Shown: in pieces, positions 454 through 58,061 of the stretch
How the letters are laid out: the number at the start of each line of letters is the position of its first letter
How positions within the stretch are numbered: position 1 is the first letter of the stretch
NCBI GenBank assembly: GCA_040386275.1
Contig: JAZKFU010000011.1
Coordinates: 1,383-65,382 of the forward strand
Source of the DNA: Patescibacteria group bacterium
GTDB lineage: Bacteria > Patescibacteriota > Minisyncoccia > Phycocordibacterales > UBA918
Length of the DNA: 64,000 nt
Direction: 5' to 3'
Made by a program: the position numbers and the translations under genes
The notes under the pieces: generated by a model
The model's input: only the letters and a program-made list of their open reading frames with translations
The model's database searches: none
Told to the model about the DNA's origin: nothing

Positions 454-1860
454 ATGGATTCATCAACAAGCCGACCTGGTCGGAAACCAGCTTTTTCTAG
501 TCGTCCCCGCTCTGGCGGAGCGTCAACTGGAGGAGCGCGACGATTTAGTAGTTCTGGAAGTCGCGGTGAAAGCGCCTCAGGCGGGCGTTCAAATGAACGT
601 CGTTCATACTCCGCTCCTTCTGCTGACCGCTCAGGTGGTGGACGTAGTTTTTCTAGTCCAGCACAACGTTCTGGCCGACGTCCTTTCTCAAGTGGCAGTG
701 GTCGTGGATCTTCTGCTCGCTCAGGCGGCGGACGAGGCGGACGCAAAATGCAGACGTTTGACGTTTCAAAATACATCAACCTTAACCCGGTAGACACCAG
801 TGCTACGGAAGAAGTGTATAAAGCGACTCACACATTCAAGACATTTGGTCTCGAACAACCACTCGTTACAACAATTACTAACATGGGACTTACTATCCCT
901 TCACCAATTCAAGATCAAATCATCCCGCACATTATGGATGGTCGTGATGTTGTTGGGTTGGCACAAACAGGTACTGGTAAAACAGCTGCGTTTCTTATTC
1001 CCACCATTAACAAAACCCTCAAGCAATATAGTCGACAAACATTGATTCTGGCTCCAACTCGCGAACTCGCGATTCAAGTTGAACAAGAACTCAAGCGTCT
1101 GACTGAAAAAATGAAAATCTTTTCTACTGTCTGTGTAGGAGGAATGAACATCCGTCCACAAATTATGGGCCTTAAGCGTCAAAACCATTTTATTATTGGT
1201 ACTCCAGGACGAGTACAGGATTTAATTGACCGTGGTCACATCAAGCCAGCTGGATTCTCAACTATCATCTTAGATGAAGCTGACCGAATGCTCGACATGG
1301 GATTCATACACGACATGCGCGCTATTCTTAAAGACGTACCGGACCCACACGAAACATTATTCTTCTCTGCGACTATGTCTGACACAGTGAAGGGATTGAT
1401 TCATGAATTCATGAATGACCCAATCACTATTTCAGTACGCAAAAAAGATATTACCGGCAGTATCACCCAAGACGTTGTGTACTACGAACCACACACAAAG
1501 TTTGATACACTCACTGCCCTCCTTAAAAAAGCTGATTTCACTCGTGTCATTATCTTTGGAGCAATGAAGCACAGTGTAGAAAAGTTATCTCAAGAACTTT
1601 CACGCGCTGGTATCAAATCAGACGCCATTCACGGAAACAAGAGTCACCCACAACGACAACGTGCTCTCCAGAACTTCAAGACAGGTCGCGTGCAAGTATT
1701 GGTAGCAACCGACGTAGCCGCCCGTGGTATTCACGTTGACGACGTCTCACACGTCATTAACTACGACCTACCAAATGCCTACGAAGATTATGTTCACCGG
1801 ATTGGGCGGACTGGACGGGCAGATAAGAAAGGGATGGCTTTGACGTTTGTGACCAAGTAG
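454..1860 (+). CDS. DEAD-box ATP-dependent RNA helicase with N-terminal Arg/Ser/Gly-rich low-complexity region (~95 aa)
   Basis: Q-motif region, Walker A AQTGTGKTAAF, DEAD box (ILDEADRMLDMGF), SAT, HRIGRTGRA motif VI. N-terminus is RGG/SR repeats. Confidence 0.9.
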   Translation: MDSSTSRPGRKPAFSSRPRSGGASTGGARRFSSSGSRGESASGGRSNERRSYSAPSADRSGGGRSFSSPAQRSGRRPFSSGSGRGSSARSGGGRGGRKMQTFDVSKYINLNPVDTSATEEVYKATHTFKTFGLEQPLVTTITNMGLTIPSPIQDQIIPHIMDGRDVVGLAQTGTGKTAAFLIPTINKTLKQYSRQTLILAPTRELAIQVEQELKRLTEKMKIFSTVCVGGMNIRPQIMGLKRQNHFIIGTPGRVQDLIDRGHIKPAGFSTIILDEADRMLDMGFIHDMRAILKDVPDPHETLFFSATMSDTVKGLIHEFMNDPITISVRKKDITGSITQDVVYYEPHTKFDTLTALLKKADFTRVIIFGAMKHSVEKLSQELSRAGIKSDAIHGNKSHPQRQRALQNFKTGRVQVLVATDVAARGIHVDDVSHVINYDLPNAYEDYVHRIGRTGRADKKGMALTFVTK

Positions 1861-15565: not shown

Positions 15566-16840
15566 ATGACTGACAAAACTCAACCAACTGATTCATACAA
15601 AGGGGTACGCGACTTCTACCCAGAAGACATGGCGGTCCAACGGTACATTTTTGATGTCTGGAGCCAAACAGCCGAGAGTTTTGGGTTTGAACGGTACGAC
15701 GCGTCGGTACTTGAACCATCTGATTTATATAAAGCGAAAGGGGCAGAAAACGAAGAAATGGTGAATGAACAAACATACACCTTTATTGACCGCGGAGAAC
15801 GAGAGGTAACACTTCGTCCTGAAATGACTCCAACCGTGGCCCGGATGGTAGCCGGTAAACGGCGTGAACTGTCGTTCCCCATTCGTTGGTATTCTATACC
15901 TAACCTATTTCGGTATGAACGTCCACAGCGCGGTCGGTTGCGAGAACACTGGCAATTAAACTGTGATATTTTTGGCGCGACAGACTATACCGCTGATGTT
16001 GAAATGATTGCGTTAGCTTCACAAGTAATTCTTAACTTTGGTGCTGACCCGTCATTGTTTGAAATTCGAGTGAACGATAGAACCGAAATGCGTTCGCTCT
16101 ACGCTGGCTTTGGTGTTACTGATGAATCAGTGCAAGACAGCATCACCAGACTTAACGATCGATTTTATAAGATATCAGCTACCGAATACAAAATTGCCTT
16201 AGGTGAAATTGTCGAGGATGGCAGTGCGGTGGAAAAAATATACACTCTGGTTTCAGGTGGTGACAGCACTGACAGCAACGCAGTGGTTGAGGGATTAAAA
16301 GAACTTGGTATCACCAACGTCAAAATCGATCGCTCAATTGCGCGAGGGTTTAATTACTATACCGGGACCATTTTTGAAATCTTTGACGTCTCAGGAGAAA
16401 ACAACCGTTCAATGTTGGGTGGTGGTCGCTACGACAACCTCACCTCCATGTTTGGCGGTGAAGCTATTTCTGGAATTGGATTTGGTATGGGTGATGTCAC
16501 GATGCGTGATTTTCTCGAAACTCATGATTTAATTACTGCCAATATCACTGCTCCCGATTTGATGGTGATTCCGATGGACCCAGCTCAAAACCTGCAGGCA
16601 CAAAAAATTGCTATGCAATTCCGCGAGACCGCCGGCTTAAGTGTCGCGACCGACATCAGTACCAAAAAATTAGGTAAAAAGATTGGTGATGCCAGCGAGA
16701 AGCTTGTAAACTATGTACTCGTGGTTGGTGAAAACGAAATCAAAGAAAACACCTACACCCTTAAGAATCTTAACGAAGAGATGCAAGTTAAAGGAACTAT
16801 AGAAGATATCCTTAAAAAATTCACCGACGGAGACCTGTAG
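15566..16840 (+). CDS. hisS: histidyl-tRNA synthetase
   Basis: Class II motifs; GVRDFYPEDM and GGGRYDNL are HisRS-specific signatures. Confidence 0.9.
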   Translation: MTDKTQPTDSYKGVRDFYPEDMAVQRYIFDVWSQTAESFGFERYDASVLEPSDLYKAKGAENEEMVNEQTYTFIDRGEREVTLRPEMTPTVARMVAGKRRELSFPIRWYSIPNLFRYERPQRGRLREHWQLNCDIFGATDYTADVEMIALASQVILNFGADPSLFEIRVNDRTEMRSLYAGFGVTDESVQDSITRLNDRFYKISATEYKIALGEIVEDGSAVEKIYTLVSGGDSTDSNAVVEGLKELGITNVKIDRSIARGFNYYTGTIFEIFDVSGENNRSMLGGGRYDNLTSMFGGEAISGIGFGMGDVTMRDFLETHDLITANITAPDLMVIPMDPAQNLQAQKIAMQFRETAGLSVATDISTKKLGKKIGDASEKLVNYVLVVGENEIKENTYTLKNLNEEMQVKGTIEDILKKFTDGDL

Positions 16841-48856: not shown

Positions 48857-49756
48857 TTAACGACTTTTTCTGCCAACTAGCATGGTAATGGCCTTGGTCA
48901 CAATTGGAAGGATGTCTTCGTAAAAATTTAGGTCAAGAATATCCGCTACCTTGAACCATTGCCCGTCGTCGAGACCGCCTTTTTGCTCCATTTCAATGGT
49001 GGTGTAGGGTGATGAGGCGAGGAAATAGTGTACTTGCTTACGCACCTTCCCTTTTTCTGGATGGGTTGCTACGTATTCGTTGTTACCCAATTCCGCTTCG
49101 ATAGTTATATCTAAGCCCATTTCTTCTTTCAGCTCGCGAACCGCTCCTGCTTGCACATCTTCTCCTTCTTCAATTTTTCCTTTTGATAGTGTCCAGTGGC
49201 CAAAAATGTCATGCACTAAAGCGAGGTACATCGAACCATTATCTTCGGCGTACACCACGGCACCAGCTAATCGTTCAATCGGCATTTCATTAAAAGGAAC
49301 TTCTTTTTTCTTCTTCCCTACTTCCTCTTTACCGGGTTCACCAATTTCCTTATAGACAGCCCCTAATACCCCGTTAACAAAACGGCTACTATTATCACCT
49401 CCAAATTGCTTCGCCAGTTCAATTGCTTCATTAATCGCTACTTTCGCCGGCACTTCTTTTCTATCTGCAAACAACAATTCAAATAACCCGAGACGCAGGA
49501 TATTTCGATCTACGGGTGAGATTCTATCAATTGGCCACTCCGGGGCGGCTTTTTCAATCACTAAATCAAGTTCGGGTTGCTTACTTAAAATACCATCGAG
49601 GAGTCGCTCCATAAATGGCCTGTCAGTTTTATTGGGTGCAAATTCTTCTATATTTCTATCTAAAACTTCAATAACTGCTTTTCGATCTATTGCATTCAAA
49701 TCCCACTCAAAAAGTGATTGTAGAACGATACTGCGTGAAAGGTGCCTATTTGCCAT
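48857..49756 (-). CDS. nusB: NusB-like antitermination domain fused to C-terminal NUDIX hydrolase domain
   Basis: N-terminal ~150 aa NusB fold (RSIVLQSLFEWD...FVNGVLGAV). C-terminal Nudix box GAVRELKEEMGLDITIEAE. Confidence 0.7.
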   Translation of the reverse strand: MANRHLSRSIVLQSLFEWDLNAIDRKAVIEVLDRNIEEFAPNKTDRPFMERLLDGILSKQPELDLVIEKAAPEWPIDRISPVDRNILRLGLFELLFADRKEVPAKVAINEAIELAKQFGGDNSSRFVNGVLGAVYKEIGEPGKEEVGKKKKEVPFNEMPIERLAGAVVYAEDNGSMYLALVHDIFGHWTLSKGKIEEGEDVQAGAVRELKEEMGLDITIEAELGNNEYVATHPEKGKVRKQVHYFLASSPYTTIEMEQKGGLDDGQWFKVADILDLNFYEDILPIVTKAITMLVGRKSR

Positions 49757-55025: not shown

Positions 55026-55067
55026 CGTGCTATATTGCTCCGAGAAACTCATAAGGAGCACATAACA

Positions 55068-55538
55068 ATGCAAGGACAGCAACTTGGCGTCATCAACTCT
55101 ATGACTCAATCTGAAGTAAACGTTTCGGATTTAGTGTCGGCTCATGAAGATTTGTTCTATCAACAAAAAGCTTCCAACTTTTCACATCAGGTTTTTACTG
55201 AAAGGAGATTTTTAAACCGTCAGATTGTTAATGACTACACAAAAGCCTTTGAAGCTCAGCGACTTGATTTTGGACGTTCACACAATATGCCCGAGGACAA
55301 AATTCTTAATCCGACATTCCCTCTATTGGAAACGATGGCGTGGTGGATTGCCTACACTCGTAGTCGGGAAGTTGGTCACGGTATGCGTTCATATGTCACA
55401 CCTACTTCAACATATATCGAGGGGCATCGATTGGGTGTTGCGTTACTCGTTAACGAATGTCTCCGAGTTGCATATACCTTTGTAGCACGGGAAGTTGTTT
55501 CCCCTCATAATCAAATCTGGCCCGCAATCACATGGTGA
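55068..55538 (+). CDS. hypothetical protein
   Basis: AAGGAG RBS at 55053-55058. Stop overlapped by terminator hairpin. Confidence 0.45.
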   Translation: MQGQQLGVINSMTQSEVNVSDLVSAHEDLFYQQKASNFSHQVFTERRFLNRQIVNDYTKAFEAQRLDFGRSHNMPEDKILNPTFPLLETMAWWIAYTRSREVGHGMRSYVTPTSTYIEGHRLGVALLVNECLRVAYTFVAREVVSPHNQIWPAITW

Positions 55539-55546
55539 TTGCGGGC
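55518..55546 (+). terminator. rho-independent terminator (perfect palindrome)
   Basis: ggcccgcaatcaca-tg-gtgattgcgggcc + ttatgtatt. Confidence 0.6.
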
Positions 55547-55640
55547 CTTATGTATTAAATATAAAACAAATAAAATATTGGCTTTTATAATAAAAGACGG
55601 TATCCTTGTACGTATGTCATCATTAGAATCAGGAGGAACG

Positions 55641-55883
55641 ATGCCCGATAAAAAAGAAATGATAGTTTCAACCGAAGAGTTGGGAGCAGTATCTAAAGAA
55701 TTAGAAGATAACGCCAATGAAAAGCCAGCTCTCGCTATGTTCTTGGCAAAGCTCCTGGAATCTCCTGAAGCTGACGCCAAAACGCTCGCGGTGGTAGAAA
55801 AAATTGTTCGCAATGAAGCAAGCCCCGAAGAAGTAACCCTTCTGCAAGACAGTCTCGCGCAGTGGATTAATGGAAATCGCTAA
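55641..55883 (+). CDS. hypothetical small acidic protein
   Basis: AGGAGG at 55631-55636. Alternative start 55614. Confidence 0.4.
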   Translation: MPDKKEMIVSTEELGAVSKELEDNANEKPALAMFLAKLLESPEADAKTLAVVEKIVRNEASPEEVTLLQDSLAQWINGNR

Positions 55884-55887
55884 CAAC

Positions 55888-55913
55888 ACGCGCCCGCAAC
55901 CGGGCGCGTTTTC
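55888..55913 (+). terminator. rho-independent terminator
   Basis: acgcgcccg-caac-cgggcgcgt + tttc. Confidence 0.7.
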
Positions 55914-55927
55914 TTATGCCTGAGCAA

Positions 55928-56155
55928 GTTGACCTTTACTCTACAAAAAGCTACCATACTACCACTTCAGAGATTGTGATGGCTACCACCCATCAGTTTG
56001 ACTAATCATCAGTCAGACGGAAATTTCCCTAATCTGCAATACAAAGAGCGTAGACAGCAGACTGTCACGAAGCCCGGTGGAACCGCGTTAGAGACCTTGT
56101 TCTCAATCGTCCGAGCGAACACACAAATTTTTGTGTAGTCGCTCGGGCGATTTTT
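55928..56155 (+). promoter_or_regulatory. candidate T-box-like leader upstream of thrS
   Basis: TTGACC at 55928. AGAGA + GUGA and ACCA (Thr codon ACC + A) candidates in 55940-55975. cccGGTGGAACCGCG at 56073-56087 matches the T-box core GGUGGNACCGCG. Terminator ccgagcga...tcgctcgg + ttttt at 56108-56155. Confidence 0.3.
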
Positions 56156-56185
56156 ATTACCAATAATTACCAACTAGACGTTCAG

Positions 56186-56288
56186 AATCAAATGCAGTAC
56201 GCGGCATGGAGAAAAAGAGTTGTGAGCCGTATGCCTATACGGTGAATAAATCTTAGAGGCTCTATAACAAAGTAACGCATTGATTGTG
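56186..56288 (+). repeat. family A repeat, copy 11 (forward), between leader terminator and thrS start
   Basis: gcggcatggag, then GAGCCGTAT-gcc-TATACGGTGA (56224-56245), then ctataacaaagtaacgcattgattg. Outer aatcaaatgc / gcattgatt. Confidence 0.55.
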
Positions 56289-56306
56289 GACGTCTCCCCC
56301 CCCCAT

Positions 56307-58061
56307 ATGGAAAATTCATTACAAAACAAACGACACACTCTCGCCCACCTCCTCGGTGCCGCGGTGTTACAAAACTACCCACACGCCAAACTCACGCTTG
56401 GTCCGGCGATTGATAACGGGTTTTATTACGACTTTGATTTTACGGGCGGACCAACGCTCGGTGACGATGGACTCAAAGAAGTACAGAAGTCGATGAAGAA
56501 AATCCTCAATGGGTGGAATGAATTTTCACACCGTGAAGTGAGTGTTGACGAAGCGCGCACGCTCTACGCCTCTAATCCGTTCAAGCTAGAGCTCGTGAAT
56601 GAAATCGCCGAACGGGGTGAAACCATTACCCTCTATACAGTCGGGGATTTTACCGACCTTTGTCGGGGCGGACACTGTAAACACCCCAACAAGGAGCTCA
56701 ACACCGATGCTTTTAAACTTGATAAAGTAGCGGGAGCTTATTGGCGTGGTGATGAGAAAAATCCCATGCTCACCCGCGTGTATGGCCTGGCGTTTGATAC
56801 ACCAGAAGAACTACATGAGTATCTCACCATGATTGAAGAAGCCAAAAAACGCGACCACCGTAAACTCGGTAAAGAGATGGGATTGTTTTCGTTTTCTGAA
56901 TTAGTCGGTGCAGGACTTCCCCTTTGGTCACCCAAAGGTACTGCACTGCGTCAACGGCTTGATGCCTTTGTGCAAGAACTCCGCGATGCGCGCGGGTACG
57001 AACACGTGACCATTCCCCACATTGCAAAAAAGTCTCTCTACGAAACCTCAGGTCACTGGAATAAATATAGTGAAGACTTATTTAAAGTGAGCGCTAAAGA
57101 AGGTGATGAACACGAAATGTATGTTCTTAAACCAATGAACTGTCCCCACCACACGCAAATCTATGATGCGGTCCCCCGTTCATACCGTGACCTCCCGCAA
57201 CGCTACGCTGAAACTACTATGGTGTACCGGGCAGAACAGTCAGGAGAATTAAATGGTCTGACTCGGGTACTTTCTATCACTCAAGATGACGCACATGTGT
57301 TTTGTCGCGAATCCCAACTACGTGACGAGATTGAAAAAATTTGGGACATCGTCAATGAATTTTATGGAGCGTTTAATTTCAAATTACGCGTCAGGCTTTC
57401 CTTCCATGACCCGGCTGACAAAGAAAAATATTTAGGTGACGCTAGTATCTGGGAAGAAACAGAAAGTCTGATGAAACAAATCGCCACCGACCGCAACGCC
57501 GACTATTTTGAAGGTGTCGGTGAAGCTGCGTTCTACGCTCCTAAACTCGACTTTATGGCCAAAGATTCAATTGGTCGCACCCACCAGGTAGCTACTATCC
57601 AACTCGATCGATTAATGCCAGGGCGGTTTAATTTATTCTGCACCAACGAAAAGGGTGAGAAGGAACCAATCGTTATGATTCACGCTGCTATTGCTGGATC
57701 ACTAGAACGGTTTTTAGCAGTATTGATCGAACACGTCGGCGGGAACTTCCCGCTCTGGCTCGCACCGGAACAAATAAAAATTATTCCGGTGAATGAAGCA
57801 CATATGCCATATGCAGAAAAAGTGTTTGCCGAACTAAAAGCAGCCGGACTGCGCGTAACACTCGATGGCGATAACGAATCAATGGGCAAGAAAATCCGCG
57901 CCGCCAAAACCAACCGCCTCCCCTACTTCATCGTCCTTGGAGATCAAGAAGTAGCCGACCAAACCGTCACCCTAGAAAAACGAGACGGCACCAAACAAGT
58001 ACTCCCCCTGTCAGACCTAACCCTCAAACTAACCACCGAAGTCCAAACCAAAGCCATCTAA
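56307..58061 (+). CDS. thrS: threonyl-tRNA synthetase (lacks N-terminal TGS domain)
   Basis: Editing domain HxxxH...CxxxH-like region. Class II core FRxE, HCPHHTQIYD zinc site. Anticodon-binding C-terminus. Confidence 0.9.
   Translation: MENSLQNKRHTLAHLLGAAVLQNYPHAKLTLGPAIDNGFYYDFDFTGGPTLGDDGLKEVQKSMKKILNGWNEFSHREVSVDEARTLYASNPFKLELVNEIAERGETITLYTVGDFTDLCRGGHCKHPNKELNTDAFKLDKVAGAYWRGDEKNPMLTRVYGLAFDTPEELHEYLTMIEEAKKRDHRKLGKEMGLFSFSELVGAGLPLWSPKGTALRQRLDAFVQELRDARGYEHVTIPHIAKKSLYETSGHWNKYSEDLFKVSAKEGDEHEMYVLKPMNCPHHTQIYDAVPRSYRDLPQRYAETTMVYRAEQSGELNGLTRVLSITQDDAHVFCRESQLRDEIEKIWDIVNEFYGAFNFKLRVRLSFHDPADKEKYLGDASIWEETESLMKQIATDRNADYFEGVGEAAFYAPKLDFMAKDSIGRTHQVATIQLDRLMPGRFNLFCTNEKGEKEPIVMIHAAIAGSLERFLAVLIEHVGGNFPLWLAPEQIKIIPVNEAHMPYAEKVFAELKAAGLRVTLDGDNESMGKKIRAAKTNRLPYFIVLGDQEVADQTVTLEKRDGTKQVLPLSDLTLKLTTEVQTKAI

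Follow-up and report, generated by a model that had tools for sequence, protein, structure and literature searches.

In Escherichia coli, the operator of thrS, the gene for threonyl-tRNA synthetase (ThrRS), contains a leader hairpin that mimics the anticodon arm of a tRNA and binds ThrRS, resulting in translational autoregulation. Here we describe the leader of thrS in a 64 kb stretch of DNA from a Patescibacteria group bacterium (contig JAZKFU010000011.1; the whole stretch is called the window throughout). It precedes the same gene and likewise contains a hairpin with the size of an anticodon arm; unlike in the E. coli operator, however, the loop of this hairpin is the complement of an anticodon, the hairpin is predicted to bind tRNA, and the read-out would be a T-box antiterminator. 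Judged from the sequence and its relatives, the leader is very probably a tRNA-Thr-sensing T-box riboswitch that would control thrS by transcription attenuation through a minimal decoding domain. An earlier note on this DNA had claimed a T-box leader controlling thrS in a genome resembling those of the candidate phyla radiation (CPR), and comparative evidence bears this out, namely the recurrence of the leader, covariation within it, and a covariance model built from its relatives (R1).

The canonical class I T-boxes (Rfam family RF00230), such as the thrS, tyrS and glyQS leaders of Bacillus subtilis, share with this leader the specifier logic, including a purine after the codon, as well as the 3' domain, which consists of an RRRNG-Stem III-AA motif, helix A1, a 7-nt UGGN bulge, helix A2, overlapping antiterminator and terminator structures, and a U-run. 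The specifier in the window, ACC, obeys the same third-position 'C rule', and the Firmicutes thrS T-boxes in our set of compared loci also carry UGGA in the bulge. The 5' domains differ, since canonical T-boxes have a long Stem I, a side-bulge S-turn specifier loop, an elbow-binding double T-loop (IDTM) and a K-turn, none of which we recognised here. Their Stem II domain is typically ~70 nt long, whereas the corresponding stretch here has ~23 nt and lacks the IIA/B pseudoknot, and an outer helix, which we call P0, is added. The glyQS T-box is likewise compact, transcriptional and devoid of a Stem II domain, but it retains a long Stem I with both a K-turn and an IDTM, neither of which is recognisable in the class described here; glyQS function requires the IDTM (PMC7583486).

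Apical-loop specifiers have been described for the translational ileS T-boxes of Actinobacteria (PMC7583486; 10.1101/2023.02.28.530422). These ultrashort-Stem-I (US) T-boxes, from M. smegmatis, M. tuberculosis and N. farcinica, resemble the leader in the window in having an apical-loop specifier, no IDTM and the same discriminator core. The US class, however, has been described as translational and confined to ileS (10.1101/2023.02.28.530422), and it depends on a K-turn, a ~70-nt S-turn Stem II and a IIA/B pseudoknot (PMC7583486), whereas here we find an intrinsic terminator, thrS as the gene, ACC as the specifier, a patescibacterial host, auxiliary modules that are absent or vestigial, and enclosure by P0. 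The short-Stem-I model of TBDB was applied solely to Actinobacteria and to sequences already found by the class I model (PMC7778990), and a survey from 2008 gave the hosts of T-boxes as Firmicutes, Actinobacteria, Chloroflexi, Deinococcus/Thermus and two Proteobacteria (PMC2494555). A full-text search, outside which some key subscription papers lie, found no literature tying T-boxes to CPR, Patescibacteria or Parcubacteria.

Results

A leader upstream of thrS recurs in Patescibacteria

All coordinates are positions within the whole 64 kb stretch and refer to the + strand unless stated, and L-numbers denote the related loci used for comparison (200 loci, ~1.4 Mb). The regulated gene, thrS (56307..58061), encodes a ThrRS of 584 aa counted from its ATG, with Pfam matches to tRNA_SAD, the class II core and HGTP_anticodon, and the ThrRS proteins of relatives align from residue 1 of the window protein, for which public assemblies hold no identical sequence. 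Its closest relatives, at 55-74% identity, come from metagenome-assembled genomes (MAGs) of Parcubacteria, Paceibacterota, Nomurabacteria and Kaiserbacteria, which agrees with the CPR-like origin proposed earlier. Upstream of thrS lies a gap of 423 nt (55884-56306), previously given as 420 nt free of open reading frames (ORFs), in which the only ORFs are mechanical ones of 46-64 aa.

A T-box core, always with UGGA, is present upstream of thrS in loci L001-L003, L007, L009-L011, L017 and L029-L031, and variant cores occupy the same position in L015, L035, L036, L039, L055 and L057. The leader precedes thrS in at least 11 Patescibacteria species genomes, with a shared design of AUUG, a 6-bp stem, the loop CUACCAA, the return strand and a G. 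The earlier note had put forward a comparison of thrS leaders as a check; across related genomes and metagenomes, over 110 distinct sequences carry this leader ahead of thrS, and this recurrence places the element far beyond chance.

We also scanned metagenomes with a pattern that fixed neither the codon nor the bulge base, which returned at least 120 stretches. Among the matches listed, the specifier was ACC in 117 of 121 and ACA, which also encodes Thr and sat on a perfect stem, in one, while in the remaining three the stem is not paired. At position N, the bulge carried A in 116 matches and G in two. In the same set, thrS lay downstream in 107 of 109 testable loci, and the encoded ThrRS proteins were just 40-80% identical to the window ThrRS, indicating that the class is old and diverse. 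Specifiers for other amino acids on the same architecture were not encountered among the matches listed, this codon-free scan giving Thr codons only, and no T-box cores were found outside thrS leaders in the Patescibacteria loci (~1.4 Mb of related DNA). Thus thrS may be the sole T-box-regulated gene in these genomes.

For covariation analysis, pairs were counted on gap-free, anchor-based module sequences, because a MAFFT alignment of full leaders scrambled the variable hairpins. Members were retained if Stem I was paired at 5 or more of 6 positions and P0 had at least 3 pairs, and the antiterminator partner was picked by complementarity. The resulting alignment is free of gaps and comprises 79 distinct sequences. 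Standard pairs account for 96.9% of its cells, and the covariation score of 0.638 compares with 0.176 for column shuffles (0/500 reach the observed score) and with 0.11 or less when the register is slid by 1-3 nt.

The leader is preceded by a promoter-like site, TTGACC-17 nt-TACCAT (55929..55957, with TTGACC at 55929-55934 and TACCAT at 55952-55957), which is the sole sigma-70-like promoter match in 55500-56500; the TTGACC had been recognised earlier but placed one base off, at 55928. Transcription is predicted to start at ~55964, 3-4 nt ahead of P0. Across the family, a promoter of the form TTGAY-N16-18-TAnnnT occurs no more than 60 nt upstream of P0 in 62/101 leaders, compared with 0/101 control windows, and the median distance from the end of its -10 element to the first P0 pair is 8 nt. 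A transcript that starts essentially at P0 leaves no room for a long Stem I. The leader stretch is strongly structured, its minimum free energy (MFE) having a z of -5.1 versus shuffles.

The 5' decoding domain is minimal and enclosed by P0

From 5' to 3', members of the family consist of a P0 strand (3-9 nt), GA, UUG, Stem I, G, an insert, C-UAA and the P0 3' strand, followed by an A-rich linker ending in RRRNG, Stem III, AA, A1, the UGGAACC bulge and A2, and finally the A1 3' strand, which is also the terminator 5' arm, the remainder of the terminator hairpin and a U-run. The sensor, measured from P0 to the end of A1, has a median length of 132 nt in the family and ~150 nt in the window.

In the window, the P0 5' strand CAGA (55968-71) pairs with the P0 3' strand UCUG (56033-36), and across the 79 sequences this helix has compensatory changes at 5/5 pairs, with 92.4% of cells paired. 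Inside it, GA (55972-73) and the trio UUG (55974-76) and UAA (56030-32) are invariant or nearly so in the 79 sequences; as the UUG/UAA trio never varies, it is uninformative on pairing, either way. Stem I follows as a 19-nt hairpin (55977..55995) with a 6-bp stem, UGAUGG/CCAUCA, for which the same sequences give compensatory changes at 6/6 pairs and 97.7% of cells paired. Its 7-nt apical loop, CUACCAC (55983-55989), contains the specifier ACC (55985-55987), a Thr codon, followed by the purine A55988; the family heptaloop reads C-U-ACC-A-A, again on 6 bp. Two specifier candidates had been named in the earlier note, and the first, ctaccac, is this loop, whereas the second, actacca (55958-55964), overlaps the -10/transcription-start region. 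An alternative P0 register, GAUU/AAUC, is preferred by unconstrained MFE folding, and was ruled out by the alignment, in which columns 38-39 vary and GA is invariant.

Between Stem I and the P0 3' strand, the MFE fold of the window contains a Stem II-like hairpin (55996-56018) and a IIA-like hairpin, GGA-AAUU-UCC (56019-56028), which are followed by the conserved C-UAA (56029-32) in an F-box-like position. The family insert has a median length of 23 nt (16-48), with one or two small hairpins and no conserved S-turn motif. P0 therefore encloses Stem I together with one or two tiny hairpins, forming a three- or four-way junction, which presumably fixes the orientation of Stem I relative to the discriminator, a role attributed in other T-boxes to the K-turn and the pseudoknot (PMC7583486).

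We looked for each of the auxiliary modules of described T-boxes. The IDTM (AGAGA + UGxRA) was not found in the leader; the AGAGA and UGUGA of the window fall within P0 and Stem I, two covarying helices, and their sequence is not conserved across the family. Accordingly, the earlier proposal that AGAGA/GUGA motifs mark the apex of Stem I had to be given up, the stretch concerned being cagagattgtgatgg at 55968-55982, where AGA belongs to the P0 strand, UGAUGG is the Stem I stem, and GA alone is invariant. From sequence alone, a K-turn with a 3-nt bulge and tandem G-A/A-G pairs is not drawable at the base of Stem I, where a non-canonical kink may still exist, and in its place the invariant GA-UUG faces C-UAA, flanking P0. 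An S-turn Stem II was not found in the inserts, AGUA plus GAA occurring in 3/103, and a IIA/B pseudoknot is not supported, complementarity between the IIA loop and downstream sequence being at chance level. What remains of the Stem II domain is an F-box-like CC-CUAA, located at the equivalent position in the Rfam alignment.

The Stem I hairpin has the dimensions of an anticodon arm, and its loop follows the layout of an anticodon loop, pyrimidine-U-NNN-purine-N. ARAGORN reported a 'tRNA-Thr (ggu)' at L133:138-213 (+), which is the reverse complement of the Stem I region of a T-box on the opposite strand. This call indicates that the hairpin closely mirrors the anticodon arm of tRNA-Thr(GGU), and also that tRNA finders can give false tRNA-Thr calls antisense to such leaders.

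Several related loci carry divergent forms of the domain. The loop is ACACCAU in L029 (2726-2914), with AG-UUG replacing GA-UUG, and 9-nt loops that still contain ACC are seen in L035 (~2690-2810), L036 (~2830-2920) and L057 (~2760-2950), while L055 (Peregrinibacteria, 2755-2937), to which the full Rfam model aligns at 44 bits, appears to keep a long Stem I. Together these forms may represent a series from long to minimal Stem I. On the short contig of L182, two copies of the leader that differ slightly point towards each other (534-661 (+) and 833-966 (-)), and thrS is absent from the 853 nt downstream; this pair is most likely an artefact of assembly, a chimera or an inverted repeat made from two strains.

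A canonical discriminator overlaps an intrinsic terminator

The 3' part of the leader begins with the purine string AAGAG (56044-48), corresponding to the RRRNG of the RRRNG-Stem III-AA motif defined in PMC7778990, and continues with Stem III (56049-56069 in the MFE fold) and AA (56070-71). In the family, RRRNG lies directly 5' of Stem III in 74/99 leaders, and AA follows Stem III in 78/99. Next come helix A1, in which the Rfam alignment pairs CCGG (56074-77) with CCGA (56111-14), the 7-nt T-box bulge UGGAACC (56078-84), whose UGGA is predicted to pair with a tRNA 3' UCCA, and helix A2, formed by GCG from 56085 and CGU to 56110. The T-box core reported earlier at 56073-56087 is indeed there, as cccGGTGGAACCGCG, and is single in the window; the exact core, GGUGGAACCGCG, spans 56076-56087, with the bulge abutting A1. 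Searched as GGTGGNACCGCG, the core occurs once in 64 kb on both strands, where 0.01 occurrences would be expected (100 dinucleotide shuffles), or 0.57 with one mismatch allowed. Throughout the 79 sequences, the bulge is invariant save at position N.

The antiterminator is drawable in 112/112 unique leaders. Helix A1 occurs in the variants UCGG/CCGA, UGGG/CCCA, UAGG/CCUA, CGGG/CCCG, GCGG/CCGC and CAGG/CCUG, and shows compensatory changes at 2/4 pairs in the 79 sequences. The earlier note had proposed a different antiterminator, between gcccg (56072-56076) and cgggc (56144-56148); both strings are present, yet the covarying pairing joins CCGG and GCG to CGU-CCGA (56108-56114), which lies in the 5' arm of the terminator.

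The intrinsic terminator itself (56105..56158) had been correctly spotted, but it is larger than was thought, comprising an outer stem of 14 bp (56105-56118 paired to 56139-56152), a hairpin inside it and a U-run at 56151-58; the tail after the hairpin is UUUUUAUU. Its 5' arm contains the antiterminator 3' strand (shared 56105-56114), making the two structures mutually exclusive. The terminator is calculated at -31.5 kcal/mol, compared with -6.7 to -8.9 kcal/mol for the antiterminator, and on these modelled energies the switch is predicted to be off by default. An automated parse identified a strong hairpin with a U-run in 96/112 leaders (median -30 kcal/mol), and 92 of these 96 terminators overlap the antiterminator 3' strand. 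The remaining 16/112, the window included, are mostly mis-anchored parses, with the 3' arm and U-run visible in 14.

A dedicated covariance model recovers the class

At gathering threshold, an Rfam search of the whole window gave 0 matches. A permissive search of 55850-56350 (501 nt) returned RF00230 alone, at 17.1 bits and E=0.14, the gathering score being 93 (the Rfam 15 value, as reported by the tool). In this alignment the antiterminator is well matched, and 88 Stem I positions are deleted. The earlier note had proposed to discard the T-box assignment should RF00230 give no significant hit; applied here, this would wrongly reject a real element, because RF00230 models the canonical 5' domain, which differs from the one present here. 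Canonical Firmicutes thrS leaders among the compared loci scored 82.3 bits (L046:2589-2777) and 69.4 bits (L058:2752-2933) with RF00230, and as these too fall below 93 bits, annotation at the gathering threshold also misses ordinary T-boxes.

We built a covariance model, R1, from 69 relatives, deliberately excluding the window. R1 gave a single match in the 64 kb, at 55964-56114, which was full length (model positions 1-138) and scored 80.2 bits (E=7.7e-20). Held-out relatives scored 45-90 bits with R1, whereas canonical Firmicutes thrS T-boxes reached 20-35 bits, through the discriminator that they have in common with the class. R1 matched nothing at many Patescibacteria thrS loci, pointing to a patchy distribution. 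Standard annotation thus misses the class, its members scoring far below the Rfam threshold, and a dedicated model such as R1 would recover them.

The predicted tRNA partner

The window contains no tRNA genes. From the leader, the cognate tRNA-Thr is predicted to have the anticodon GGU and the discriminator base U73, with which the two UGGG bulge variants are also compatible through a G-U pair. The identity elements of bacterial ThrRS are G34, G35 and U36; position 73 is not one of them and can differ between lineages (PMC9976931). The leader loop likely reads the anticodon by kissing the anticodon loop of the tRNA; in this loop-loop complex, ACC would pair with GGU, the next A could pair with U33, and the leader loop could adopt U-turn geometry. 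By analogy with glyQS, the G/C-rich codon-anticodon duplex probably lowers the need for lateral stabilisation.

Discussion

Taken together, the modules suggest the following mechanism. Transcription would start ~4 nt before P0, and the nascent RNA would fold into a closed junction, with P0 around Stem I and the small hairpins and with the heptaloop presenting ACC. A tRNA-Thr(GGU) would dock through loop-loop codon-anticodon pairing, and if it is uncharged, its 3' end (predicted UCCA) would pair with UGGA, the 5'-most bases of the T-box bulge. This pairing, together with stacking on Stem III, would stabilise the weak antiterminator (~-7 kcal/mol) and withhold the 5' arm from the -31.5 kcal/mol terminator hairpin, such that RNA polymerase would read into thrS. 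With charged or absent tRNA, the terminator would form and transcription would stop at the U-run, 56151-56158. We infer tRNA binding, the U73 pairing, the loop U-turn and the regulatory outcome from the leader and its relatives.

By its predicted mechanism and its discriminator the element is a T-box, and it fails the defining features both of the canonical class I 5' domain and of the ultrashort translational class. The chances seem to us evenly balanced that it belongs to a previously undescribed, widespread class of minimal transcriptional T-boxes, with only two base-paired tRNA contacts (heptaloop kissing and NCCA-bulge pairing) and a closed P0 junction, and without an elbow platform, K-turn, S-turn Stem II or pseudoknot. 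Such a class, whose members are abundant in nature, would depart from two associations made for T-boxes, that of transcriptional control with a long Stem I bearing the IDTM and that of the apical-loop specifier with translational ileS. If it exists as described, an IDTM is not inherently required for co-transcriptional capture of tRNA, and thrS in Patescibacteria is regulated by a T-box that has been kept in a streamlined, perhaps ancestral, form. At ~130 nt, this would to our knowledge be the smallest natural architecture of a T-box riboswitch, and the compact sensor makes the required tRNA contacts directly testable and offers a small part for engineering. The finding extends T-box regulation to Patescibacteria/CPR, and suggests that tRNA charging feeds back on the supply of ThrRS in organisms in which very few regulators can be recognised.

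Several observations weigh against reading the leader as a minimal T-box riboswitch. The RF00230 score of the window is low (17.1 versus 93), and Patescibacteria relatives also reach just 30-45 bits with this model. Within the leader, the last base of the loop is C where the family has A, and A1 carries a C-A mismatch (CCGG/CCGA). The family filters, together with the sequence pattern used for recovery, inflate the percentage of paired cells and hide loop variants; they do not, however, generate the compensatory-change signal. No true tRNA-Thr gene is present among the 24 tRNAs detected in the 200 related loci (1.4 Mb). Finally, transcriptional T-boxes are held to need a long Stem I with the elbow-binding IDTM for fast capture of the tRNA, ahead of the arrival of RNA polymerase at the terminator (PMC7583486), and since the IDTM is missing here, either this rule is not general or an unseen factor helps.

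An ordinary class I T-box of canonical build, whose long Stem I has diverged too far to score well, would fit the canonical 3' discriminator half and the 44-45 bits that some other CPR lineages, L055 and L029 among them, reach over the full Rfam model, but the promoter leaves ~4 nt before P0, and it is the 19-nt Stem I that covaries, at all six of its pairs, while Rfam deletes 88 Stem I positions. The AGAGA/UGUGA strings on which a long Stem I might be drawn lie in covarying helices and are unconserved as sequence, the sensor has a median of just 132 nt, and R1 separates Firmicutes thrS T-boxes (20-35 bits) from members of the class (45-90 bits), so we regard this explanation as very improbable. 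A translational T-box of the actinobacterial ultrashort type, sequestering the ribosome-binding site, appears slightly less probable again. The apical-loop specifier and the missing IDTM are indeed those of the ultrashort class (10.1101/2023.02.28.530422; PMC7583486), yet what competes with the antiterminator in at least 96/112 members is a GC-rich hairpin of ~-30 kcal/mol with an immediate U-run, the regulated gene is thrS and not ileS, and the thrS start lies ~100 nt (median) past the T-box core, and 220 nt past it in the window, a distance that makes sequestration of the start site by the helix impossible.

Highly improbable, in our assessment, is a chance match to the core beside an unrelated terminator, or a decayed and non-functional relic. 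The low Rfam score, the A1 mismatch and the atypical last loop base speak for such a reading, but 0.01 exact core matches are expected in the window, all modules are intact, the CCGG/CCGA combination recurs in 7 leaders, and the 80.2 bits obtained with R1, from which the window was excluded, fall inside the held-out range. We give the least credence of all to an autoregulatory operator that binds ThrRS as in E. coli thrS, with Stem I as an anticodon-arm mimic: the gene is the same, and the hairpin of 6 bp with a 7-nt loop has U at the position equivalent to 33, but the loop holds the codon ACC and not a Thr anticodon, NGU (identity elements G34, G35 and U36; PMC9976931), and a protein operator would have no need of the full discriminator, the UGGN bulge or a terminator switch. 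Leader-peptide attenuation was ruled out, as the ORFs in the gap are mechanical only and the stems covary as RNA.

Other features of the thrS locus and the window

A second structured element (56194..56274, +) lies between the terminator and the thrS start, outside the T-box proper. This extended hairpin is closed by the helix (A/G)(U/C)GGAG...CUCC(A/G)(U/C); its conserved internal loops are GAG...UGA, and CGUA...UACG forms the hairpin inside. Relatives are found at L096:13695-13776(-), L123:7241-7321(-), L170:824-904(-), L180:772-853(+) and L185:1019-1099(+), and the six sequences show compensatory changes at 9/23 predicted pairs; a permissive search of the element against Rfam gave no family match. 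Its presence in ~6/112 leaders indicates that it is restricted to one lineage. As a second element, this hairpin could serve regulation or stabilisation, perhaps by offering a site for protein binding.

At the thrS start, a run of nine C (56296-56304, within 56295-56306) lies directly 5' of the ATG, at the expected Shine-Dalgarno site, and a GGAGG-like motif is absent within 15 nt of the ATG. The C tract is not kept in relatives. Alternative in-frame starts are TTG at 56280 and GTG at 56286. The window ThrRS begins at the second additional (editing-associated) domain, and Pfam gives no N-terminal TGS match for it.

Upstream of the thrS gap, a small ORF (55641-55883) has its own terminator at 55888-55909. 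A perfect 13-bp inverted repeat, GGCCCGCAATCAC-ATG-GTGATTGCGGGCC, at 55519-55547 is terminator-like on both strands and spans the junction of the small ORFs 55035-55538 and 55539/55641-55883.

Elsewhere in the window, hisS, encoding histidyl-tRNA synthetase (HisRS; 15566-16840, +), has an upstream gap of 87 nt without a T-box core, and the tuf/secE/nusG cluster is absent from the window. A separate NUDIX gene is located at 38644-39111, and a 299-aa ORF at 48857-49756 (-) encodes an unusual fusion, with a NusB domain at the N terminus and a NUDIX hydrolase domain at the C terminus (Pfam E=2e-36 and 1e-15).

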